Part shown: piece after piece, positions 1-47,455 of the stretch | How positions within the stretch are numbered: the stretch's first letter is position 1 | Layout of the letters: each line of letters opens with the position of its first letter | Sequence record: MN850609.1 | DNA: 64,000 nucleotides | Reading direction: 5' to 3' (one strand) | Source of the DNA: Escherichia phage dhaeg | Notes under the pieces: generated by a model | What the model was told of the DNA's origin: nothing | The model's database searches: none | What the model saw: only the letters and a program-made list of their open reading frames with translations | Position numbers and translations under genes: made by a program

Positions 1-16
1 CATTTATCTAACCTTA

Positions 17-511
17 ATGCACGCCTTCGCTGAACGCGCCATTGAACGTTTAGACTCAGACCAATATACCTGGTATGAACCTACTTCAAGAATGCAAGAG
101 TTTGGTACTCTTCGACTTGACGGTGGGCGTCAAACAGGTAAAACAAGTGCCATTGCCCAGTTCGCAGCTGATTGGGTTTCCAAGGGTAATGATGTGATTG
201 TTATGTCAAGTTCTTCGCACCGGTCACGCGAAATTTGTAATGTAATAAAAAGGGTTTCTAAGGCCCAACCACACCTTCAAGTAGAAGGTCCTGGGTTTGT
301 TGTATATGATACCGTACGTTCATTTTTAGACGAAGATAACTTCCATAAGTATCGTGGTCTATCAGTTACTCGATTATTGATTATTATCGAAGAGCCAATG
401 CGCCTTCCAGCGATGGATAAGTTCTATGAAGCTTACCAGGTAATGATGAATAAATTTATGTGCCAGGGTTCTAAACCTCTGCCGCTGTTCTTTGTGATAG
501 GAATGCAATGA
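17..511 (+). CDS. hypothetical protein with Walker A-like motif (GGRQTGKTS); frame open to window edge so N-terminus may lie upstream
   Basis: 164-codon ORF; GxxxxGKT motif; stop overlaps next start. Confidence 0.45.
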   Translation: MHAFAERAIERLDSDQYTWYEPTSRMQEFGTLRLDGGRQTGKTSAIAQFAADWVSKGNDVIVMSSSSHRSREICNVIKRVSKAQPHLQVEGPGFVVYDTVRSFLDEDNFHKYRGLSVTRLLIIIEEPMRLPAMDKFYEAYQVMMNKFMCQGSKPLPLFFVIGMQ

Positions 512-804
512 TGACTGATGAAGAGCTTTTTGAGTTCTGTTATTTCTCACGTAAGGTTCGAAGAGAGGACCTTACTACAAATTTCGAATATGCTTATTTC
601 TATCCATTAGAATATGTATTCATGTCAGGGCCCTTTAAGGGCTCTCGTTTTAGATGTCATGCCCCAAGCATCCGATTAATGAAACAGGTTCCTTACTTCA
701 CTCTCGAGTTCATCTCTGGGCCGTGTAAGGGTATTATTACTCGCAGTCTCTTGACGTATGACCAAGAGATTCATATGATTTCTGACTGGAAAAAATATGT
801 CTAA
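508..804 (+). CDS. hypothetical protein
   Basis: 98-aa ORF, ATGA overlap with upstream ORF. Confidence 0.4.
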   Translation: MMTDEELFEFCYFSRKVRREDLTTNFEYAYFYPLEYVFMSGPFKGSRFRCHAPSIRLMKQVPYFTLEFISGPCKGIITRSLLTYDQEIHMISDWKKYV

Positions 805-1015
805 ATTGACAATTGAAGGCTCTGATGAAGCTCTGAAGAGATTTGTTGAATGGTTTAATGGGCCGGGTGAACAAGACTTTCTGGAAGTCTGGGACGGCGG
901 CCAATGGAATGGTAAAGAAATTGTTTACCCAACTACTTATATCTCCGTGCAAGGTTGGACTGAAGGCCTTCGTTTGGTGGAATATGATATCGCAACTGGC
1001 GAGGAAGTGAAATGA
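797..1015 (+). CDS. hypothetical protein
   Basis: 72-aa ORF, overlapping start/stop with neighbours. Confidence 0.4.
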   Translation: MSKLTIEGSDEALKRFVEWFNGPGEQDFLEVWDGGQWNGKEIVYPTTYISVQGWTEGLRLVEYDIATGEEVK

Positions 1016-1290
1016 TTGAAGACATCAAAGGTTACAAGCCACATACCGACGATAAAATAGGTAAAGTGAATGCCATTAAAGATGCTGAAGTTCGATTGGG
1101 CTTAATCTTTAAAGCATTAGAAGAAGAATATGTTGAAGCCTTTACATGCTCCGGTGTTGATAAAATGAGTGATGAAGAATTCGACCTTACTCATGAACGC
1201 CTCGCCCAGATTCGTACGGCAATCGAACGCTTGAAAGAAGCATCCATGTGGGCCTGTCGTTCCGTTTTCCAACCGGAAGAGAAATACTAA
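1012..1290 (+). CDS. hypothetical protein
   Basis: 92-aa ORF, coupled to neighbours. Confidence 0.4.
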   Translation: MIEDIKGYKPHTDDKIGKVNAIKDAEVRLGLIFKALEEEYVEAFTCSGVDKMSDEEFDLTHERLAQIRTAIERLKEASMWACRSVFQPEEKY

Positions 1291-1499
1291 TGAAAATCGA
1301 AAGTTTGCAAGAATTCCAACGTATCATCAGTGAAGCCTGTACTGGCTACCACAAATACTTGCTTGACGACCAAATGGCTTGTATTGAAGAAGGTGAATTG
1401 CAGTACGCAGCCCAGCGCCTTGAACAGGTGAAAGAGTTTTATCCGGTGCTGGTAGAAATTTGTTCTGCTGTCGGAAAACTTACCCCATTCCAAGAATAA
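1290..1499 (+). CDS. hypothetical protein (start moved to internal ATG at TAATG overlap)
   Basis: ORF 1248-1499; ATG at 1290 overlaps upstream stop. Confidence 0.4.
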   Translation: MKIESLQEFQRIISEACTGYHKYLLDDQMACIEEGELQYAAQRLEQVKEFYPVLVEICSAVGKLTPFQE

Positions 1500-1503
1500 A
1501 GCA

Positions 1504-1532
1504 GTTTACATCTCCTGTAGACGTGGTACTAT
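1504..1532 (+). promoter_or_regulatory. early sigma70-type promoter (GTTTAC -35, TACTAT -10) with spacer/SD inverted repeat CTCCTGTAG/CTACAGGAG
   Basis: GTTTAC, 17-bp spacer, TACTAT; conserved AGACCTATCAACT block downstream. Confidence 0.65.
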
Positions 1533-1560
1533 AGACCTATCAACTACAGGAGATTACAAA

Positions 1561-2019
1561 ATGTCAGAAATTAATTCAGAAGTATTCATCCGCCGCAACA
1601 AATTACGTCGTCAGTTCGAAACCGAATTTCGTGAACTTAACGCGTCCATCAAAAAAGCCGCCATTAAGAGCGGTGTCCCAGCTTTCTTTATTAAGTACTC
1701 TAATCACTTGTTGGACCGTGCTATCCAACGTGAAATTGACGAAAAATATGTTTTCTCTTTGTTCAAGAAGCTCCATAATCATGTTAAAGAAATCCATGAA
1801 TTTTTAATCCAGGAGCCTCTTCCTGACATAGAATCTGAAATTGTCCCAGGTAAAGTGTATCGTCCACTGCGTCTCGAGATTACCGATAAAACCTTATGGT
1901 TGGGTATGACCGTAGATCGTAAACATCCTGATAAAGGATATTCATTAAAATGTCGTATGGCATTTGTTAATTCTAAACGTTTAGAAGGTAAAACCAGCAC
2001 GAAAGTAATCTATCTTTAA
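1561..2019 (+). CDS. regB: RegB endoribonuclease (cleaves GGAG in early mRNA Shine-Dalgarno regions)
   Basis: 152 aa; close match from memory to T4 RegB (EVFIRRNKLRR, HLLDRAIQREIDE, RLEITD); synteny upstream of tk. Confidence 0.85.
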   Translation: MSEINSEVFIRRNKLRRQFETEFRELNASIKKAAIKSGVPAFFIKYSNHLLDRAIQREIDEKYVFSLFKKLHNHVKEIHEFLIQEPLPDIESEIVPGKVYRPLRLEITDKTLWLGMTVDRKHPDKGYSLKCRMAFVNSKRLEGKTSTKVIYL

Positions 2020-2031
2020 TAATGAGGTCTC

Positions 2032-2571
2032 ATGAAAAAAGTATTAGCCACTTTACTATTGACAGTTAGTATGTCTGCCTATAGCGTAGAGCCTACTTTC
2101 AGTAATGAACAACTCGATAATTTACATTATGCGTATGCTTTCGGTGAACAATACCAAAAGTCGGGAAAGTTCAAAGAAAACCCTAATCAAAAAGGATTAG
2201 GATATATAATGGCCGGATTATTATGGCAGGAATCATCTGCTGGAATTAATCAAGGTTTAAATAAAGATAAGCACCATGCTTATGGCATGTTCCAAAATTA
2301 CTTGCCTACGTTAAGAAGTCGTGTTCAACAGGTAGGTTGGAAGATGTCAGACAAAGAAATAATTCGCATGGTCCAAAAACGACAGAACAGTGCCTCTTGG
2401 GCCTACATTGAGCTGTCTTATTGGATTGATGTTCACAAAGGTGACCTGAGAAAAGCGATTGCTTCTTATAATGCGGGCTGGAATGTCAAAGCAGGCAGTA
2501 AATATGCTTCCGAAGTTCTAGAAAAGGCCAATTACCTAAAATCTAAAAAGATGTTTGAGGCGGTATATTAA
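2032..2571 (+). CDS. secreted lytic transglycosylase (SLT domain) protein
   Basis: N-terminal signal peptide; SLT-like motifs WQESS, GMFQ, SYNAGW. Confidence 0.55.
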   Translation: MKKVLATLLLTVSMSAYSVEPTFSNEQLDNLHYAYAFGEQYQKSGKFKENPNQKGLGYIMAGLLWQESSAGINQGLNKDKHHAYGMFQNYLPTLRSRVQQVGWKMSDKEIIRMVQKRQNSASWAYIELSYWIDVHKGDLRKAIASYNAGWNVKAGSKYASEVLEKANYLKSKKMFEAVY

Positions 2572-2928
2572 ATGATTAAACAGATGACTATAGCGCTTAT
2601 GTTGATTGCTCCGGGAGTATTAGCATCACAGGTTGATGATACAAATAATTCAATTGTCGAGTATGCCACCCGTACAGCAAAAGATTATTGTCATCCGAGT
2701 AATACTGAATGTGTTATTGAATTCAGTTCAAAAATAACAGCTGCTTTTAAAGATGGACAGAACGACGTCGAGCATCGCCGAATGAAAGAGAAAACTCTTT
2801 CTAAAAGATACGAGCAACGTCTAAACGTTACTGAATGTGTTCCGTCTGATAAAAAGTACAAAGAAATGTGCGCGTCTATGGTAGACAGACTCGTTGACTC
2901 TTACAACCGAGGGCTAAACTCTAAATGA
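2572..2928 (+). CDS. secreted hypothetical protein
   Basis: 118 aa, signal-peptide-like N-terminus, cysteines. Confidence 0.45.
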   Translation: MIKQMTIALMLIAPGVLASQVDDTNNSIVEYATRTAKDYCHPSNTECVIEFSSKITAAFKDGQNDVEHRRMKEKTLSKRYEQRLNVTECVPSDKKYKEMCASMVDRLVDSYNRGLNSK

Positions 2929-3404
2929 TTATTGATTATATTAAGGGCGATATCGTCGCCCTGTTTCTTCAAGGTAATATTATTGCACACGGGTGCAACT
3001 GTTTTCATACTATGGGTTCAGGTGTGGCTGGTCAATTAGCAAAGGCCTATCCTAAAATATTAGAAATTGATAAGACCACTACTGAATATGGTTCTCGTGA
3101 TAAATTGGGTGATATGTCTATTGTTTTTAAACATAAGCCTAATGGATTTGCAATGTGCTATAATTTATACACCCAATACGAACCAGGCCCTAATCTTGAT
3201 TACGGTGCTTTAGTAAACTGTATGATAGAATTAAATCTACAAGCAAATGACCTTTTGTTTAAACCAAGAATTTATATTCCTCGCATTGGTTGTGGTATTG
3301 CTGGTGGTGATTGGGACAAGGTTTCTAAATTAATCGACATGTTTACTCCTGATATTGATTTAATAGTGGTGGATTATGAAAGCACATTACCCACATCCGT
3401 TTGA
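2925..3404 (+). CDS. macro domain protein (ADP-ribose binding / ADP-ribosylhydrolase fold)
   Basis: 159 aa; Gly-rich macro motif NCFHTMGSGVAGQLAKAYP; ATGA overlap upstream. Confidence 0.6.
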   Translation: MIIDYIKGDIVALFLQGNIIAHGCNCFHTMGSGVAGQLAKAYPKILEIDKTTTEYGSRDKLGDMSIVFKHKPNGFAMCYNLYTQYEPGPNLDYGALVNCMIELNLQANDLLFKPRIYIPRIGCGIAGGDWDKVSKLIDMFTPDIDLIVVDYESTLPTSV

Positions 3405-3588
3405 CCCTAAAAATAAAGCTGAAATTATTCGGCGCTGGACTGAAACTCGAGTAACCAAATGCCCTATAAAAAGTCAGCATAACACCGATAAATGGTATAT
3501 TGGTGAATATGTTGAATATACTTTTATAGATAAAAATAAACGTAAACAGCATGTAGAAGAATATTGCTTAAAGGTACAATGGTTATGA
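3376..3588 (+). CDS. hypothetical protein
   Basis: 70-aa ORF overlapping macro gene end; GGTGG RBS. Confidence 0.3.
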   Translation: MKAHYPHPFDPKNKAEIIRRWTETRVTKCPIKSQHNTDKWYIGEYVEYTFIDKNKRKQHVEEYCLKVQWL

Positions 3589-3791
3589 GCCAAGCCCGAA
3601 TTCTTAAAACAGCCAAATGTGAAAAATGCGAATGGCCGGTAATCGCAGCTTTATGCAACGATGAAATGAATTGCGAATATGATTACTGGTGGTACTGTTC
3701 TAATAAAGGATGTTCTAATCATAAAGGTGAAGGTTTTCATTCTGGTTATTGCGAACATCCTAAATTTGTGCGATATGGTGAACCTAAATGA
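3585..3791 (+). CDS. Cys-rich small protein (putative zinc-binding)
   Basis: ATGA overlap at 3585; CxxC and several Cys/His. Confidence 0.4.
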   Translation: MSQARILKTAKCEKCEWPVIAALCNDEMNCEYDYWWYCSNKGCSNHKGEGFHSGYCEHPKFVRYGEPK

Positions 3792-3973
3792 GTTTGAGTA
3801 AAGAACAGAAAGACAAATTGTTTGAGCTTATCCATGAGCTTTTGGATGAACATGCCGAAGCAAACGCTTTTTACGATGAATATGGCCCGATAGATGCCGA
3901 CCATCAGGAAGAATTTGCTAATCGATTTGATGAGAAAGAAAACGAATTAATTGCTTATGTGAATAGTCTTTAA
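3788..3973 (+). CDS. hypothetical acidic protein
   Basis: 61-aa ORF, ATGA overlap. Confidence 0.4.
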   Translation: MSLSKEQKDKLFELIHELLDEHAEANAFYDEYGPIDADHQEEFANRFDEKENELIAYVNSL

Positions 3974-3982
3974 GAAGGTAAT

Positions 3983-4555
3983 ATGGCTCAACTTTATTTT
4001 CACTATGCGGCAATGAACTCAGGTAAGACAGCTTCATTGCTAACGGCGGCTCATAACTACAAAGAACGTGGTATGGGCGTGCTCCTTTTAAAGCCTGCGA
4101 TAGACAATAGAGAATCAAGCCATACCATTTCGTCTCGTATAGGGATTAGTCAAGAGGCTAATGCAGTGACTCCGGATATGGACCTATACGAGTTCTATCG
4201 TTGGGCTGAATCTCAAAAAGATATCCACTGTGTGTTTGTGGATGAAGCACAGTTCTTAGAACCTGCACAGATAAAACAACTGGCAAAGATAGTAGACAAT
4301 TATAATGTTCCAGTTATGTGTTATGGACTAAGAACTGATTTTCAGGGTAAACTGTTTCCTGGTTCTGCCGAATTACTCGCTACGGCAGATAAACTCGTTG
4401 AGTACAAAGGTGTGTGCCATTGTGGCCGTAAAGCTACTATGACTGCTAGGGTCCAAGATGGTATCGCAATTAAGGACGGAGCCCAAGTTTCTATAGGTGG
4501 CAACGATTCTTACGTGTCATTGTGCAGGAAGCACTGGATAGAAATAACGAGTTGA
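3983..4555 (+). CDS. tk: thymidine kinase
   Basis: 190 aa; P-loop MNSGKT; C-terminal Cys zinc motif; TK1-family signature. Confidence 0.9.
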   Translation: MAQLYFHYAAMNSGKTASLLTAAHNYKERGMGVLLLKPAIDNRESSHTISSRIGISQEANAVTPDMDLYEFYRWAESQKDIHCVFVDEAQFLEPAQIKQLAKIVDNYNVPVMCYGLRTDFQGKLFPGSAELLATADKLVEYKGVCHCGRKATMTARVQDGIAIKDGAQVSIGGNDSYVSLCRKHWIEITS

Positions 4556-4562
4556 GGGTACT

Positions 4563-4841
4563 ATGGACCTAAATTCAAAGATTTTAATTCTAGCGTTCGC
4601 TGTGGCCATCTCTTATATTGTTCTTTCGCCCATCATGGATGATGTGGCTTACAAAAGAGAGATAGAAGTTGTAGCAGCGACGTATAATGCTAATAATAAA
4701 GAATGTCCTAATAAAAATGGAATGGATTTAATTAAAGCGCATTATATGCTTTCCATTACCTCGCCTATACAGAGGAATTGGGTTGAATATAATTTTAACG
4801 ACGTGTTCTATTCTTATTGTCGTAAGCTTAAAAAGCTATAA
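4563..4841 (+). CDS. small membrane-anchored protein
   Basis: 92 aa, N-terminal transmembrane helix. Confidence 0.45.
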   Translation: MDLNSKILILAFAVAISYIVLSPIMDDVAYKREIEVVAATYNANNKECPNKNGMDLIKAHYMLSITSPIQRNWVEYNFNDVFYSYCRKLKKL

Positions 4842-4844
4842 ATA
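4837..4844 (+). promoter_or_regulatory. candidate T4-type late promoter TATAAATA
   Basis: exact TATAAATA octamer about 90 nt upstream of rI-like gene. Confidence 0.3.
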
Positions 4845-4934
4845 GTAATACTAACCGTAGAGCTTTAGCTTTTGGTAATCGCTATCGGTTAAGGCCGAAA
4901 GGCAAATTCGTATAAAATAACAAAGGACTTTTGT

Positions 4935-5228
4935 ATGGGTATTTTCCGTACAGTGGCTTGTATCCTTATGATTGGATGTTTAAGCCCGACATCTTCACTA
5001 GCAAACAAATCCGACCCTAAATTGATGGATGCCTTTGCTAGTAGTGCGATGCCAGTTTATGCGCAAATGAGTAAACCTAGTGTAAAGGCTTCCGAAGACT
5101 ACTGGGCTTATGTAACTGCTTCTTGGAAAATTTCAAATTGCAATACAATAGAGTCTTGCTCGATTGAAGGTCGGGCTATCGGAGAACGATACGCTAAACT
5201 AATGAAGGTAGATGATGAAATTCAATGA
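4935..5228 (+). CDS. rI: rI-like lysis inhibition regulator (periplasmic, signal-anchor)
   Basis: 97 aa; N-terminal TM/signal; C-terminal similarity recalled to T4 rI; synteny next to tk. Confidence 0.5.
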   Translation: MGIFRTVACILMIGCLSPTSSLANKSDPKLMDAFASSAMPVYAQMSKPSVKASEDYWAYVTASWKISNCNTIESCSIEGRAIGERYAKLMKVDDEIQ

Positions 5229-5598
5229 TTTCGTACTTAGTCGAGGGACTGAAGTAGATTCTTATATTGGCTGGCTGTTGGTTTCTTTAGCCTATTTTAA
5301 GTCAGCCCATTTGGAAACCAAAAGCTATGCAAGACACAAAGCATATGACTTCTATTATACAGAAGTTCAAGGACCACTAGACCAGTTCAGTGAACAGTAT
5401 TTAGGATTTAGTGGCAAAGAATATAAAGCATCACTACCGTCTGCTTCAGAACTGCCTAAAGACCCCATAGATTTTCTTGATGAACTTATTAAAGCGTCTG
5501 ATAAAATCTACAAAAATCTTCCTAAGGCCATCCAATCGACTTTGGACGACATCACTGGTGTCTTTTACCAGACTAAGTATTTGTTAACGTTAGAATAA
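5212..5598 (+). CDS. hypothetical protein
   Basis: 128-aa ORF followed by terminator. Confidence 0.45.
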   Translation: MMKFNDFVLSRGTEVDSYIGWLLVSLAYFKSAHLETKSYARHKAYDFYYTEVQGPLDQFSEQYLGFSGKEYKASLPSASELPKDPIDFLDELIKASDKIYKNLPKAIQSTLDDITGVFYQTKYLLTLE

Positions 5599-40745: not shown

Positions 40746-40937
40746 ATGACTGCAATGTGTACAGGCTCTAAGATTTCTGTATTCGAACTGTTCGAAGAAT
40801 ATGAAATCGTATCAAAAGACCAAGAAGCTATCCATATTATTGCAGGTGATGGCTTAACTTGGATTATTCCACTTTACCACGAAGATACGTATGAAGTCAC
40901 TGATGCAAATGGTGATAAAGCTATTTTCGTAATATAA
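40746..40937 (+). CDS. hypothetical acidic protein
   Basis: 63-aa ORF. Confidence 0.4.
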   Translation: MTAMCTGSKISVFELFEEYEIVSKDQEAIHIIAGDGLTWIIPLYHEDTYEVTDANGDKAIFVI

Positions 40938-40940
40938 ATA
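40933..40940 (+). promoter_or_regulatory. candidate T4-type late promoter TATAAATA
   Basis: exact TATAAATA octamer 13 nt upstream of small ORF 40954. Confidence 0.35.
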
Positions 40941-40953
40941 AGGCCAGGAGCCT

Positions 40954-41115
40954 ATGAAATCTTTTAAAGAAGTTATGAACGAAGATATGGTCGCAGGCGA
41001 TGCTGATGGAAATCCATCTAATATTGCCTCCGGAACTACCTCAGGCGCAGTCGTCAACAAAGGGCCTGAACAAATCCCATCTAAAAAGCGTAAAGAAAAA
41101 TCCGAAAACGAATGA
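40954..41115 (+). CDS. hypothetical small protein (unlisted ORF)
   Basis: 53 codons read by hand; AGGAG RBS. Confidence 0.35.
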   Translation: MKSFKEVMNEDMVAGDADGNPSNIASGTTSGAVVNKGPEQIPSKKRKEKSENE

Positions 41116-41141
41116 TATAATGGCTCTATTAATTTAGAGCC
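41116..41141 (+). promoter_or_regulatory. extended -10 promoter (TGATATAAT) followed by hairpin GGCTCTA/TAGAGCC upstream of primase
   Basis: TGnTATAAT then 7-bp inverted repeat. Confidence 0.45.
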
Positions 41142-41153
41142 CAAGGAAAAATA

Positions 41154-42182
41154 ATGTCATATGTCGATAGAGAATTTGCTGTACGTGCCTTGAATTACCA
41201 ACCTAAATTCAGACAAGTAACTGGTAGTGATTTTAAATTAAACTGTCGTTGCCGTGTATGTGGTGACTCCCAAAAAGATGAAAACAAAGCTCGATTCTGG
41301 GCCTATCCGGCCAATGACGGCTCTGTAATGCTACACTGTTTTAACTGTGATTATTCGGCAGGAATTAAGAAGTACCTATACGAATACGAACCTGATTTAT
41401 ATCGGGAATATATTCTTGAGAAACATAAAGAGCAATCGTTCGGGAGACAAGCTGCACCTAAGGTGGAGATATCTGAAAAAATTAAAGCTAAGATGCCTGT
41501 AATCGAAAAGCTTAATTTCTGTGAACGATTAGATAGAATGCCGAAGGACCATCCTATTATCAAATATGTGACGTTACGTTGCATTCCTGAAAATAAATGG
41601 AATCGTCTATGGTTTACTAAAGAATGGCCTGCATTGGTTAACTCAGTTAATCCAGGAACCTATTCTAAAGAAATGCCTGAGCCCCGTTTGGTTATTCCTA
41701 TTTTCAATAAGGATAAACAAATAGAAAGTTTCCAGGGTCGAGCCTTGCGTAAAGATGCCCCACAAAAATATATTACAATAAAAGCTCATGACCAAGCTAC
41801 AAAAATATATGGAATGGATACGGTTGACGAACGTCAATTGGTATGGGTTATGGAAGGGCCTATTGATTCTTTATTTGTCCCTAATGCCATAGCAATTACT
41901 GGTGGGTCATTAGACTTATCAGTAGTTCCATGTAAAGAAACAAGAGCGTGGGTAATGGACAATGAACCCCGTCATCCTGACACAATTAAGCGTATGCAAC
42001 GCCTAGTTGATGCTGGCGAAAGGGTTCTATTCTGGGACAAGGCTCCGTGGCCTTCTAAAGATATAAATGATATGGTTATGAAAGATAAAGCTGATATAAA
42101 TGATGTATTGGCATATATGAAAGCTAATATAGCCCAAGGGTTAATGGCAAAAATGAGGCTTTCAAAATATTCTAAAATTTAG
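41154..42182 (+). CDS. 61: DNA primase gp61 (zinc finger + Toprim)
   Basis: 342 aa; CRCRVCGDS...HCFNC zinc-binding region; Toprim-like EGPIDSL, DNEPR. Confidence 0.8.
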   Translation: MSYVDREFAVRALNYQPKFRQVTGSDFKLNCRCRVCGDSQKDENKARFWAYPANDGSVMLHCFNCDYSAGIKKYLYEYEPDLYREYILEKHKEQSFGRQAAPKVEISEKIKAKMPVIEKLNFCERLDRMPKDHPIIKYVTLRCIPENKWNRLWFTKEWPALVNSVNPGTYSKEMPEPRLVIPIFNKDKQIESFQGRALRKDAPQKYITIKAHDQATKIYGMDTVDERQLVWVMEGPIDSLFVPNAIAITGGSLDLSVVPCKETRAWVMDNEPRHPDTIKRMQRLVDAGERVLFWDKAPWPSKDINDMVMKDKADINDVLAYMKANIAQGLMAKMRLSKYSKI

Positions 42183-44213: not shown

Positions 44214-44377
44214 CTATTGAAGAAGCTGAAGCACGTACTAAAGAGGCAATGGATTTGCTTCTTAAAATTGGTAGTAAAATGATGGAAGAAAACGAGAAAT
44301 ACATCCAGGAAAATAAAATTCCGGATGGCCCTTTAGTAGGTAAACTAAAAAGAGGAAAACATAATGAAAGTTTATGA
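44210..44377 (+). CDS. hypothetical small protein (unlisted ORF)
   Basis: 55 codons read by hand; ATGA overlap upstream. Confidence 0.3.
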
Positions 44378-44855
44378 ACTAGAATTCCATGTGCGTGATT
44401 CATCCGGTCAAACGCGGCCTTATGATGCCACGGCTGCCCTTATCCTTGTTGACAACGGCATGAATTCTATCACCCAATTAGAAACACGATTAAAAGATAT
44501 TAAGCTGCCAGAAAATATTCTAATGAAGGCATATCATAATAAAAATGTTGATGTTGCTGAGGGGTGTCCTTTTAGCCTGGCTGAAGCATTACATATCAAG
44601 GGTTATCGTTATCCGGCGGACCCATATGCCGAAGGAACAATGGATATTTTCTATAAAGATACTGATAGAATGTCCAACGAACGTCTTAAAGGTCGTACAT
44701 ATTTGATTTCCACCACCGAAGACCTTACTGAAGTCGAACGACAGATTTGGAAACACTTTGATATTGGCTTACGTTTTACTATGACTGAAGAAGCTATTCG
44801 TGATGCTAAGTTACGAGCTCGTATGTATGGTTATGGTCCTATCGGTGGTTACTAA
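44364..44855 (+). CDS. hypothetical protein
   Basis: 163 aa; AGAGGAAAA RBS. Confidence 0.5.
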
Positions 44856-45328: not shown

Positions 45329-45898
45329 ATGAACATCGAACAAAAATGTCTTTATCAAGACCGAATCAATTCTAAATTTTCAAAATCTGAACAAGCGTTG
45401 TTAGAGAAATGTCTGGATGCCAAAAAAGACCCTAACTTCCATTATGACCTAGACAAACTAGTTCGTAAGCATGTTACTTCGGTCGTTCCGGTAGAGCTTT
45501 ATCGTGGGATTACTCCAAGAGAACTTGAGCAACTTGAAGTTCTTTCTGTCGGATGCCAGTGGTCTCCCGGCCGTGTTACTTCTTTTAGTACACAATACTC
45601 TCAGGCTCGTCAGTTCGCAGGGGCGTGGGAATATGGAACTAAAACCATCTTAAGTCTCAGGAATGCACCGTTCATTTTCGACTACTACAATCATGCTATC
45701 GACCTTGTTCTTGCAGGGAATGTGGACGAACTTGAAATAGATGAAACCCGGATAGACCTCTATGATATGGTCGAAACTGAATGTGAGTTCATGGTCTCTA
45801 GTCTATCACGGTTCGAGATTGTGGAAATCGAAACTATCAAAAGAGACCCATACGAAATCGAGTACAAAATAATTCATTTAAAAATGTTAGATTTTTAG
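45329..45898 (+). CDS. modB: mono-ADP-ribosyltransferase, Mod family (modB position)
   Basis: 189 aa; R-S-ExE class motifs LYRG, SFS, ECEF; paralog of next gene; synteny between soc and dda. Confidence 0.6.
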   Translation: MNIEQKCLYQDRINSKFSKSEQALLEKCLDAKKDPNFHYDLDKLVRKHVTSVVPVELYRGITPRELEQLEVLSVGCQWSPGRVTSFSTQYSQARQFAGAWEYGTKTILSLRNAPFIFDYYNHAIDLVLAGNVDELEIDETRIDLYDMVETECEFMVSSLSRFEIVEIETIKRDPYEIEYKIIHLKMLDF

Positions 45899-45927
45899 TT
45901 TACAGGCAAGGATGCTTGTGGTACTAT
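45898..45927 (+). promoter_or_regulatory. early promoter (GTTTAC / TACTAT)
   Basis: GTTTAC, 18 bp, TACTAT. Confidence 0.6.
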
Positions 45928-45952
45928 CTTTCTATCAACTGAGGAGAATAAT

Positions 45953-46567
45953 ATGTTATATCCAAATCATAAATTATCAGAGTTCTATGACAATGTTAAA
46001 TGTGATGATTTCCGTGAAAACATTCAGGGTGAAATAGACGGGCAGTACTCTGATTTAGAACAGAGTGTCCTCTGGCAGTGCATGGAAAATAAACCTGATT
46101 CTATCCAAGAAACTTTGAACAAAATCATTCGTAAGAATCTAACTTCTGTAGTGCCTGACAAACTGTACCGTGGAATTTCTAAGAAAACTTTGAAATACCT
46201 CGAATCGGTAGGATGTGTTGGTGCCACAATTGAATTTGACAGAGTAATGAGCTTCTCTAAAGATTTTAAGGTGGCCCGTAACTTTGCTTCATATAATTTT
46301 TACGGAACCAAAAATATTTTCTGTATTAATGATGCACCTTTTGCATTTGATTACCAGGAAGCAATCTTTAAAATGATTTGTGGCGCTCCTCCCGAAGAGT
46401 TCAACGGGCCATATCCAGAAATAACTCGTACTTCAAACTTGCAATTAGTAAACGATGAAGATGAGATGATGTTCCCTGCGGGAACTACGCTACGCGTAGA
46501 CTCTATTGAGAGAGTTTGTGGATGGCAAGATTATACATTATGGAATCTTTCCGTTCTTTCTTACTGA
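45953..46567 (+). CDS. modA: mono-ADP-ribosyltransferase, Mod family (modA position)
   Basis: 204 aa; LYRG, SFS, EDEMMF; paralog of upstream gene. Confidence 0.6.
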   Translation: MLYPNHKLSEFYDNVKCDDFRENIQGEIDGQYSDLEQSVLWQCMENKPDSIQETLNKIIRKNLTSVVPDKLYRGISKKTLKYLESVGCVGATIEFDRVMSFSKDFKVARNFASYNFYGTKNIFCINDAPFAFDYQEAIFKMICGAPPEEFNGPYPEITRTSNLQLVNDEDEMMFPAGTTLRVDSIERVCGWQDYTLWNLSVLSY

Positions 46568-46705: not shown

Positions 46706-47455
46706 ATGCCTACTATTAAAACTAACGATGAATTTGAGTTAAAGGTTTACAACCGCCGCAAACACACCAAAGCTTCTGCTTGTAAACGCGGTAAGGACTT
46801 CAATCTGTCTAGTAAGTATGTTCGTAGACTTCTCGAACAAAAAGTGTGCGCTTATTCGGGCGAGTACTTTGATGAAAATTCAGTTAATGACAAGATTTCA
46901 TTTGAACGTTTTAACAACGATATCGGCTATATTGAGGGTAATGTAATCCCAGTTAAAGTTAAGTATAACAGCTTACGTGCCGATTTGTCCCTTGATGAAC
47001 TGAAACGTGCTCAGACTCGTTTAGCAGTTCGTATTTCAGGTAGTTCTAAAATGCCTAATAGTTTTAAAGTTACTCCTGATAACTATTATAAAATCCGTAA
47101 AATCGTTAAAAATATAAAAGATACCCAAAGAGGTCTTAAAAAACGTGAAAAACGTCTTAAAGACCTTATTAAATCAGGAGCTACTGATAAGACTCCTTCT
47201 GTTATCGCAGTTAAGGCCCGTATCCACGGTTCTAACGCTTCAATCGGTACTATGGAAAAAGGTCTTAAATCTTTAATTGGTGGGCCTGATTGGCGTGTCA
47301 AGTTTAAATTGTCTGAAGCAGAAACGCGTTACGATATGTATGATAAAATTATTCAAGGTCTGGAGCGTTTAGAACACCTTTCTTTTATTGACAAATTGAA
47401 GTTGAAAAAAGGTCTTCCATTGAATGCTTCAATTTTTTCACTGATTAGAGGTTAA
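46706..47455 (+). CDS. Srd-like protein (by position between mod genes and dda)
   Basis: 249 aa; basic C-terminal half; synteny and size match T4 srd as recalled. Confidence 0.35.
   Translation: MPTIKTNDEFELKVYNRRKHTKASACKRGKDFNLSSKYVRRLLEQKVCAYSGEYFDENSVNDKISFERFNNDIGYIEGNVIPVKVKYNSLRADLSLDELKRAQTRLAVRISGSSKMPNSFKVTPDNYYKIRKIVKNIKDTQRGLKKREKRLKDLIKSGATDKTPSVIAVKARIHGSNASIGTMEKGLKSLIGGPDWRVKFKLSEAETRYDMYDKIIQGLERLEHLSFIDKLKLKKGLPLNASIFSLIRG

Follow-up and report, generated by a model that had tools for sequence, protein, structure and literature searches.

Within the 64,000-nucleotide (nt) stretch of the Escherichia phage dhaeg genome (sequence record MN850609.1) that we analysed, hereafter called the window, a short early gene encodes a protein with a glycine-rich string typical of macrodomains, and we were wondering which protein this is and which ADP-ribose (ADPr) mark it might act on. 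The gene is an ATG...TGA open reading frame (ORF) of 159 amino acids (aa) at positions 2925-3404 of the plus strand, stop codon included, as seen in the ORF listing and by direct reading, and residues 25-42 of its product form the Gly-rich string NCFHTMGSGVAGQLAKAY. The protein matched the Pfam Macro domain PF01661 (E=4e-8, 33.7 bits, gathering score 22 bits) over profile positions 2-117 of 118 and PHROG 335 with E=7e-71; 776 homologues were found at E<=1e-5 in the protein collection, and a tblastn survey matched the protein in 2773 phage records, with close relatives among Pseudomonas, Vibrio, Bacillus and Cellulophaga phages. Since all of these matches are far beyond chance, 2925-3404 is not a chance frame. 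Sequence comparison shows that phage T4 tk.4, a gene lately renamed adfM (anti-DarT factor, macrodomain), has its Dhakavirus (JS98-type) ortholog in this ORF:

2925-3404, plus strand: tk.4/adfM ortholog, a stand-alone macrodomain protein of 159 aa, based on Pfam, PHROG 335, identity to T4 Tk.4, the AlphaFold2 model and Foldseek

The assignment is carried by the alignment with T4 Tk.4, which extends over 155 aa without gaps at 57% identity and 74% positives (E=5e-69). Both proteins have the H-G-C-N, MGSGVAGQ and NLYTQ motifs and belong to PHROG 335, and both genes follow vs, with which they share an ATGA overlap, and precede tk.3. They differ in 43% of residues, and the second Gly-rich loop reads RIGCGIAGGDW in the ORF, which is the family consensus, versus RIGAGIGKGNW in T4. 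The placement of tk.4 between vs and tk.3 is alike in the window, T2, T4 and JS98, and T4 and T2 have the same arrangement of the vs/tk.4 junction. Because gapless identity, gene order and junction coincide, we regard the ORF as the tk.4 ortholog. The region is JS98-like, with 97.4% nt identity to Escherichia phage JS98 (Dhakavirus, Straboviridae) across bases 1500-4600 of the window, a segment that is matched by 548 phage records. In JS98 and T4, tk.4 is annotated as 'phosphatase; contains A1pp phosphatase motif', the A1pp/macro match of the gene was reported in 2006 (PMC1524935) and its anti-defence role was published in 2025. The novelty implied by an earlier, sequence-only reading of this DNA therefore falls away: gene and role are already described in the literature, and the observation is confirmed, not new.

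We next turned to the fold, for which we used an alignment of 78 sequences (A1) that served both the AlphaFold2 model and the residue conservation. The model reached a mean predicted local distance difference test (pLDDT) score of 94.8 and a predicted template modelling (pTM) score of 0.89 and has alternating strands and helices. A Foldseek comparison with the PDB returned 155 matches at E<=1e-3, the top 18 of which were all macrodomains, so that model and matches agree on a three-layer alpha/beta/alpha macro fold. With a Pfam score above the cut-off, the macro fold and two Gly-rich loops, the protein belongs to the macro superfamily, and the proposal of the sequence-only reading that 2925-3404 encodes a macrodomain protein, which it had staked on a fold prediction, was borne out.

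With regard to subclass, we conclude that the ORF, an early gene, encodes a stand-alone macrodomain of ALC1/TARG1-like type. The best Foldseek match was human TARG1/OARD1 (4J5R; E=3.9e-9, template modelling (TM) score 0.72/0.81), followed among the top matches by yeast Poa1p, Bacteroides BT1257, the DarG macrodomains of T. aquaticus and M. tuberculosis and a T. africanus DarTG fusion. Using comparison sequences that are exact matches to PDB chains 5M3I, 2LGR/4J5Q and 5CB3, hhalign gave probabilities of 97.9% for DarG, 98.5% for TARG1 and 6.9% for YmdB. TARG1 also reverses thymidine-linked ADPr on DNA; unlike the ORF, it uses a catalytic dyad of Lys84 and Asp125, the positions of which are occupied by Gln84 and Ala126 in the phage protein. 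MacroD and YmdB, which the sequence-only reading had put forward as comparators for the catalytic-residue check, turned out to be the wrong subclass. We rejected this type on the basis of the hhalign probability, the position of E. coli YmdB as only the 31st Foldseek match and the catalytic Asp of the GGGVD loop (YmdB Asp35), which lies opposite the invariant Ala35.

DarG itself was the sole match found by PADLOC (2.6e-7, profile positions 2-144 of 329), and its macrodomain (M. tuberculosis 5M3I, T. aquaticus 5M31) is homologous to the ORF, has a similar fold (TM about 0.72-0.76) and presumably shares thymidine-ADPr on single-stranded DNA as its substrate. The DarG equivalog NF048014 was nevertheless rejected, with 28.3 bits versus a cut-off of 250 and coverage of profile positions 1-142 of 338. 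In contrast to DarG, the ORF has Gln84 in place of Lys80, lacks the C-terminal DarT-binding domain and has no adjacent darT, and we thus rejected an identity as DarG antitoxin. tk.4 is flanked by vs and tk.3, and the annotation of the collinear 50 kb of JS98 lists no DarT. Poa1p also matched the ORF in sequence (E=5e-10), with a strong alignment only in the N-terminal half, and in Foldseek (TM 0.65-0.74). H22 aligns with the His of its IHSCN motif and T29 with the Ser of its NGSWGGG stretch; by our own reading, this His and this Ser are H23 and S30 of the deposited mutant structures (H23A, S30A).

The residues expected at the active site fall into four segments:

2988-2999, plus strand: active-site motif H22-G23-C24-N25, supported by invariance and by alignments to SCO6735, BT1257 and DarG
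3012-3032, plus strand: first Gly-rich ADPr-binding loop, M30-G36 (MGSGVAG), in which G33 and A35 are invariant
3162-3176, plus strand: N80-L-Y-T-Q84 motif, with Q84 (codon CAA, 3174-3176) present in 78 of 78 sequences and placed by hhalign
3279-3314, plus strand: second Gly-rich, phosphate-binding loop, P119-W130 (PRIGCGIAGGDW), in which P119, G122, G124 and W130 are invariant

Across the 78 sequences of A1, H22, G23, N25, C26, G33, A35, N80, Y82, Q84, P119, G122, G124 and W130 are invariant. The H22-G23-C24-N25 motif corresponds to H24-V25-C26-N27 of SCO6735, and N25 to N22 of DarG and N23 of PhiKZ AdfM; the roles of the residues in this H-x-C-N motif are taken from PMC9411070 and PMC13309987. 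In the second loop, where PRIGCGIAGG represents residues 119-128, the TARG1 segment 'PRIGCGLDRLQW' is aligned such that A126 lies opposite TARG1 Asp125. In hhalign, Q84 falls at the position of the catalytic lysine, which is Lys80 in DarG and Lys84 in TARG1; this equivalence was derived from alignments of profiles and sequences, not from 3D superposition. Q84 matches Gln85 of SCO6735 and aligns with the Q of NMIGQH in BT1257 and SCO6735, and an N-x-x-x-Q pattern is common to these two proteins and the Tk.4 family.

Consistent with this, a search of PDB sequences with the family profile ranked BT1257 first (1.3e-19), followed by SCO6735 (5.3e-16), TARG1 (1e-15) and DarG (7.7e-12 and 5.7e-10). 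In a neighbour-joining tree of 14 sequences, which is small and only indicative, the Tk.4 family grouped with BT1257 and SCO6735, and PhiKZ gp104 grouped with DarG. SCO6735 (PDB 5E3B) and BT1257 (2FG1/2AFC) are, like the ORF, free-standing genes with no DarT partner, and they share with it the Gln at the DarG-K80 position, the H-x-C-N motif and a PRIGCGxAGG-W loop. Their identity to the ORF is only about 25-27%, the ORF has 4-6 fewer residues in the loop that follows the Gln, and it lacks Lys34 and Lys89 of SCO6735; moreover, it is an early-expressed phage gene and does not belong to a cellular DNA-damage response. SCO6735, a free-standing and lysine-less enzyme, hydrolyses thymidine-linked ADPr on DNA faster than DarG or TARG1, removes the mark made by DarT and rescues cells from DarT, and its Q85A and Q85E variants are wholly inactive (PMC9411070). 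Gln85 has been proposed to position the distal ribose in a water-mediated mechanism (PMC9411070). Because Gln84 replaces Lys80/Lys84 and both H22 and N25 are conserved, catalysis by the ORF product would be expected to be water-mediated and Gln-positioned, not of the DarG lysine type. In action, the protein would resemble DarG, with an active site of the SCO6735 kind. This Gln84 pattern is one added detail beyond the published work on tk.4/adfM.

PhiKZ gp104, which carries the same published name, differs in this respect. Both are stand-alone phage macrodomains, gp104 being about 160 aa long and countering DarTG2. In contrast to the ORF, to which it is 21% identical, gp104 keeps the lysine of the DarG 'FPTK' motif and is placed with DarG in the tree; it enters the phage nucleus by import, and its activity has been demonstrated in vitro (PMC13309987). 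Thus, from their sequences, T4 Tk.4 and its ortholog in the window appear to be enzymes of the Gln type, as SCO6735 is, and PhiKZ AdfM one of the Lys type, as DarG is. The T4-type AdfM appears to derive from the free-standing SCO6735/BT1257 branch and not from a captured DarG, and two separate phage acquisitions seem to go by the name AdfM. A cellular Gln-type macrodomain that is 41% identical to the ORF is encoded on the chromosome of Pelagimonas phthalicica (P0082; L010 5001-5459), where it stands alone among genes of housekeeping appearance, which encode a redoxin, an M23 peptidase, a Trp halogenase, a U32 peptidase and biotin synthase, with no DarT nearby. Its free-standing setting suggests a genome-protection role like that of SCO6735.

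DarTG systems ADP-ribosylate DNA, which blocks phage replication. Considering the fold, the active site and the orthology together, we think it likely that the role of the ORF product is the protection of replicating phage DNA from DarTG2 by removal of thymidine-linked ADPr via a Gln-type active site. According to this model, the protein would be expressed with the early regB-tk block, host DarT2 would ADP-ribosylate thymidines in single-stranded phage DNA, and the enzyme would then hydrolyse the thymidine-ADPr bond and restore replicable DNA. Support comes from T4. When a T4 transposon-sequencing library was passed over a DarTG2-expressing host, tk.4 was the single significant hit, and a clean tk.4 knockout was DarTG2-sensitive, with the gene being renamed adfM (bioRxiv 10.1101/2025.11.20.689424, November 2025). 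The same preprint noted the structural similarity of Tk.4 to the M. tuberculosis DarG macrodomain and, on genetic evidence, described the enzymatic step as one that 'seems likely'. T4 without AdfA and AdfN had already been found to stay DarTG2-resistant (PMC11825919), which implies a further factor. In addition, PhiKZ gp104 AdfM removes DarT2-made ADPr from a TNTC oligonucleotide in vitro and rescues cells from DarT2 (PMC13309987). The suggestion of the sequence-only reading that the phage might counter ADP-ribosylating host defences agrees well with the DarTG2 sensitivity of the T4 knockout, and we infer that the ORF product would have the same activity and target as its T4 ortholog.

Several points weigh against this role. 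The support for Tk.4-type proteins consists of T4 genetics from a preprint, and the ORF shares only 57% of its residues with T4 Tk.4. The DNA-positioning lysines K34 and K89 of SCO6735 and its long mobile loop are not kept in the ORF: S32 (Ala in the family consensus) lies opposite K34, and the loop that follows Q84 is shortened by 4-6 residues, with no equivalent Lys. The protein is also acidic (isoelectric point 5.0), and for both reasons DNA binding is not obvious from sequence. Furthermore, SCO6735 and TARG1 also act on proteins with Glu/Asp-linked ADPr and on RNA with uracil-linked ADPr (PMC9411070, PMC13036486), so DNA may not be the sole substrate. Even a catalytically dead SCO6735 inhibits DarT through interaction, so the mechanism may go beyond hydrolysis.

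This last observation leads to the first of the alternatives, in which the ORF product counters DarT2 mainly by binding to the toxin itself or to what the toxin has ADP-ribosylated, that is by stoichiometric inhibition or shielding instead of hydrolysis. The inactive Q85A variant of SCO6735 inhibits DarT in vitro more than DarG K80A or TARG1 K84A do (PMC9411070), AdfA and AdfB are non-enzymatic DarT binders (PMC11825919) and the ORF has no canonical catalytic Lys. However, leaving aside the DNA-positioning lysines, the catalytic residues of SCO6735 (H, N, Q and the Gly loops) are invariant in 78 diverse homologues, a pattern expected of an enzyme, and the ORF has no counterpart of the domain by which DarG binds DarT; we thus consider a mainly non-catalytic mechanism improbable. 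Much the same holds for a protein with small ADPr derivatives as its main substrates, be it ADP-ribose-1''-phosphate as for Poa1p, O-acetyl-ADP-ribose or ADPr-based immune signals and toxins, to which we likewise attach little probability. Such a role would fit the 'phosphatase / A1pp motif' annotation, the match to Poa1p in sequence (E=5e-10) and fold, and a prediction from comparative genomics (PMC9503650), but the 'phosphatase' label of Tk.4 is an annotation transfer, the phenotype of the T4 knockout is specific to a system that ADP-ribosylates DNA and the closest profile matches, BT1257 and SCO6735, represent the branch with demonstrated DNA activity. As another option, the ORF product might reverse uracil-linked ADPr placed on RNA by a host RNA-targeting ADP-ribosyltransferase, besides or instead of acting on DNA. 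We know of no bacterial defence that makes uracil-ADPr, and the T4 genetics point to DarTG2. TARG1, DarG and especially SCO6735 do hydrolyse uracil-ADPr on single-stranded RNA (PMC13036486), and an RNA-ADP-ribosylating defence against T-even phages exists in the form of CmdTAC (PMC11618068), but CmdT modifies adenine and its mark is described as irreversible (PMC13036486), so that we hold an RNA-directed role to be very unlikely.

Finally, the phage might erase or tune its own marks, i.e. the Arg-linked ADPr that Alt and ModA place on RNA polymerase and host proteins, or the RNAylation made by ModB. This idea of a phage that both writes and erases ADP-ribosylation had been raised by the sequence-only reading from two Mod-type ADP-ribosyltransferases at 45329-46567. 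That these genes are present was upheld by their PHROG 832 matches and by the annotation of modB and modA in JS98:

44364-44855: mrh, flanking the two mod genes
45329-45898, plus strand: ModB, PHROG 832 'RNA polymerase ADP-ribosylase' (E=7e-38), modB in JS98
45953-46567, plus strand: ModA, PHROG 832 'RNA polymerase ADP-ribosylase' (E=2e-41), modA in JS98
46706-47455: srd, flanking the two mod genes

ModB and ModA gave no Pfam match at E<=0.01; by eye, both carry the R / S-x-S / E-x-E triad of ADP-ribosyltransferases (LYRG; SFS; ECEF or DEDEM). Apart from the presence of writers in the same genome, erasure of Arg-linked marks is helped by the existence of arginine-specific macrodomains, for example MavL (cited in PMC13036486). 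The functional coupling, however, rested only on a shared 64-kb window in which 42 kb separate tk.4 from mod and the two belong to different gene clusters. The characterised ALC1-like macrodomains act on Glu/Asp-, thymine- and uracil-linked ADPr and not on the Arg-linked form that Mod makes (PMC9411070, PMC13036486), and the T4 tk.4 phenotype was seen specifically on DarTG2 (bioRxiv 10.1101/2025.11.20.689424). Taken together, these data leave the write-and-erase idea with very little probability.

If the protein protects phage DNA from DarTG2 as we propose, phage-encoded erasers of this kind explain the natural resistance of T-even-like phages, and recognition of adfM allows one to predict from sequence whether JS98-like (Dhakavirus) phages that are candidates for therapy resist DarTG2. 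There is also a practical consequence for mutant design: because the SCO6735-type Gln stands in the T4-type protein where DarG has its lysine, catalytically dead K-to-A designs based on DarG do not transfer, and Q84A or N25A would be suitable catalytic mutants of T4-type AdfM. A wider and considerably more doubtful proposal is that the T4-type and PhiKZ-type AdfM proteins are independent acquisitions and that the Gln-type Tk.4 branch, coming from SCO6735/BT1257-like genome-protection macrodomains, is a broad-specificity eraser. Should its specificity be as broad as that of SCO6735, covering thymine-ADPr on DNA, uracil-ADPr on RNA and Glu/Asp-ADPr on protein, the enzyme could shield T-even-like phages against several ADP-ribosylating defences simultaneously, whichever toxin wrote the mark.

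The genes around tk.4 form a compact early block:

1561-4555, plus strand: syntenic early-gene block from regB to tk, based on Pfam and PHROG matches and the same order in T2, T4 and JS98
1561-2019, plus strand: regB, Pfam REGB_T4 (E=2e-69)
2032-2571, plus strand: vs.1
2572-2928, plus strand: vs
2909-2928, plus strand: Shine-Dalgarno-like GAGGG (2909-2913) and overlapping stop/start ATGA, read from the sequence
3376-3588, plus strand: tk.3
3564-3791, plus strand: orf102
3788-3973, plus strand: tk.2
3983-4555, plus strand: tk

At the vs/tk.4 junction, the ATGA at 2925-2928 combines the tk.4 start codon (2925-2927) with the vs stop codon (2926-2928), and the GAGGG lies 12 nt upstream. The overlap suggests translational coupling of tk.4 to vs. 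This immediate upstream neighbour is the valyl-tRNA synthetase modifier gene, and of all T4 genes, vs showed the strongest depletion in minimal medium (bioRxiv 10.1101/2025.11.20.689424). On the other side, the tk.3 start lies 29 nt ahead of the tk.4 stop, so that a deletion of tk.4 has to be engineered without polar effects on either vs or tk.3. A scan of positions 1-5300 for promoters and terminators revealed no signal, with 13 promoter-like sites versus 14.5 +/- 3.7 expected; a site at 1505-1532 upstream of regB is only plausible as the operon promoter.

As to the neighbourhood, the sequence-only reading had placed the macrodomain gene beside one for a secreted lytic transglycosylase and near regB. 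The proximity of regB holds, but the presumed transglycosylase gene, vs.1, is separated from tk.4 by vs, and its label is weakly supported. The N-terminus of vs.1 is signal-peptide-like (MKKVLATLLLTVSMSAYS) and the protein has WQES and SYNAGW motifs. Its Pfam SLT match (E=0.011, 15.7 bits) stays below the gathering score of 21.3, no NCBIfam match and no PDB sequence match were obtained for it, and its single-sequence AlphaFold model was too poor for use (pLDDT 46.2). This marginal SLT match had already been described in 2006 (PMC1524935), and the designation as a secreted lytic transglycosylase remains a 20-year-old marginal prediction.

With respect to other anti-DarT factors, no NADAR protein corresponding to AdfN (gp30.3 of T4, where it is encoded near gene 30; PMC11825919) is annotated in the collinear region of JS98. 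Three small hypothetical ORFs of JS98, orf28-orf30, are located between 61.1 and sp, equivalent to about 40900-41600 in the window. This may be the position at which the DarT1 inhibitor AdfA (gp61.2) is encoded in T4 and RB69.

Within the tk.4 coding region, we observed a GC-rich 8-bp hairpin, AGGGCGAU-AUC-GUCGCCCU, at 2944-2962 of the plus strand, 20 nt past the start codon and with a stability of about -13 kcal/mol. We do not claim a function for this structure, the regional z-score of which is -1.66; it may act in translation or processing, or may simply follow from the codons for KGD(I/L)(V/I)(A/S)L. When nine phages were compared, the hairpin was kept in Tequatro and Dhakavirus and absent in four (Pet-CM3-4, Mexia, IT22 and avDM14). 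T4, T2 and UGJNEcP3 share an identical stem although the flanking wobble positions have diverged, and the rV5-like phage HMD-6, the protein of which has 46% aa identity, carries a hairpin of different sequence, GAGGGAGAU-UUA-AUCUCCCUU, at the same codons.

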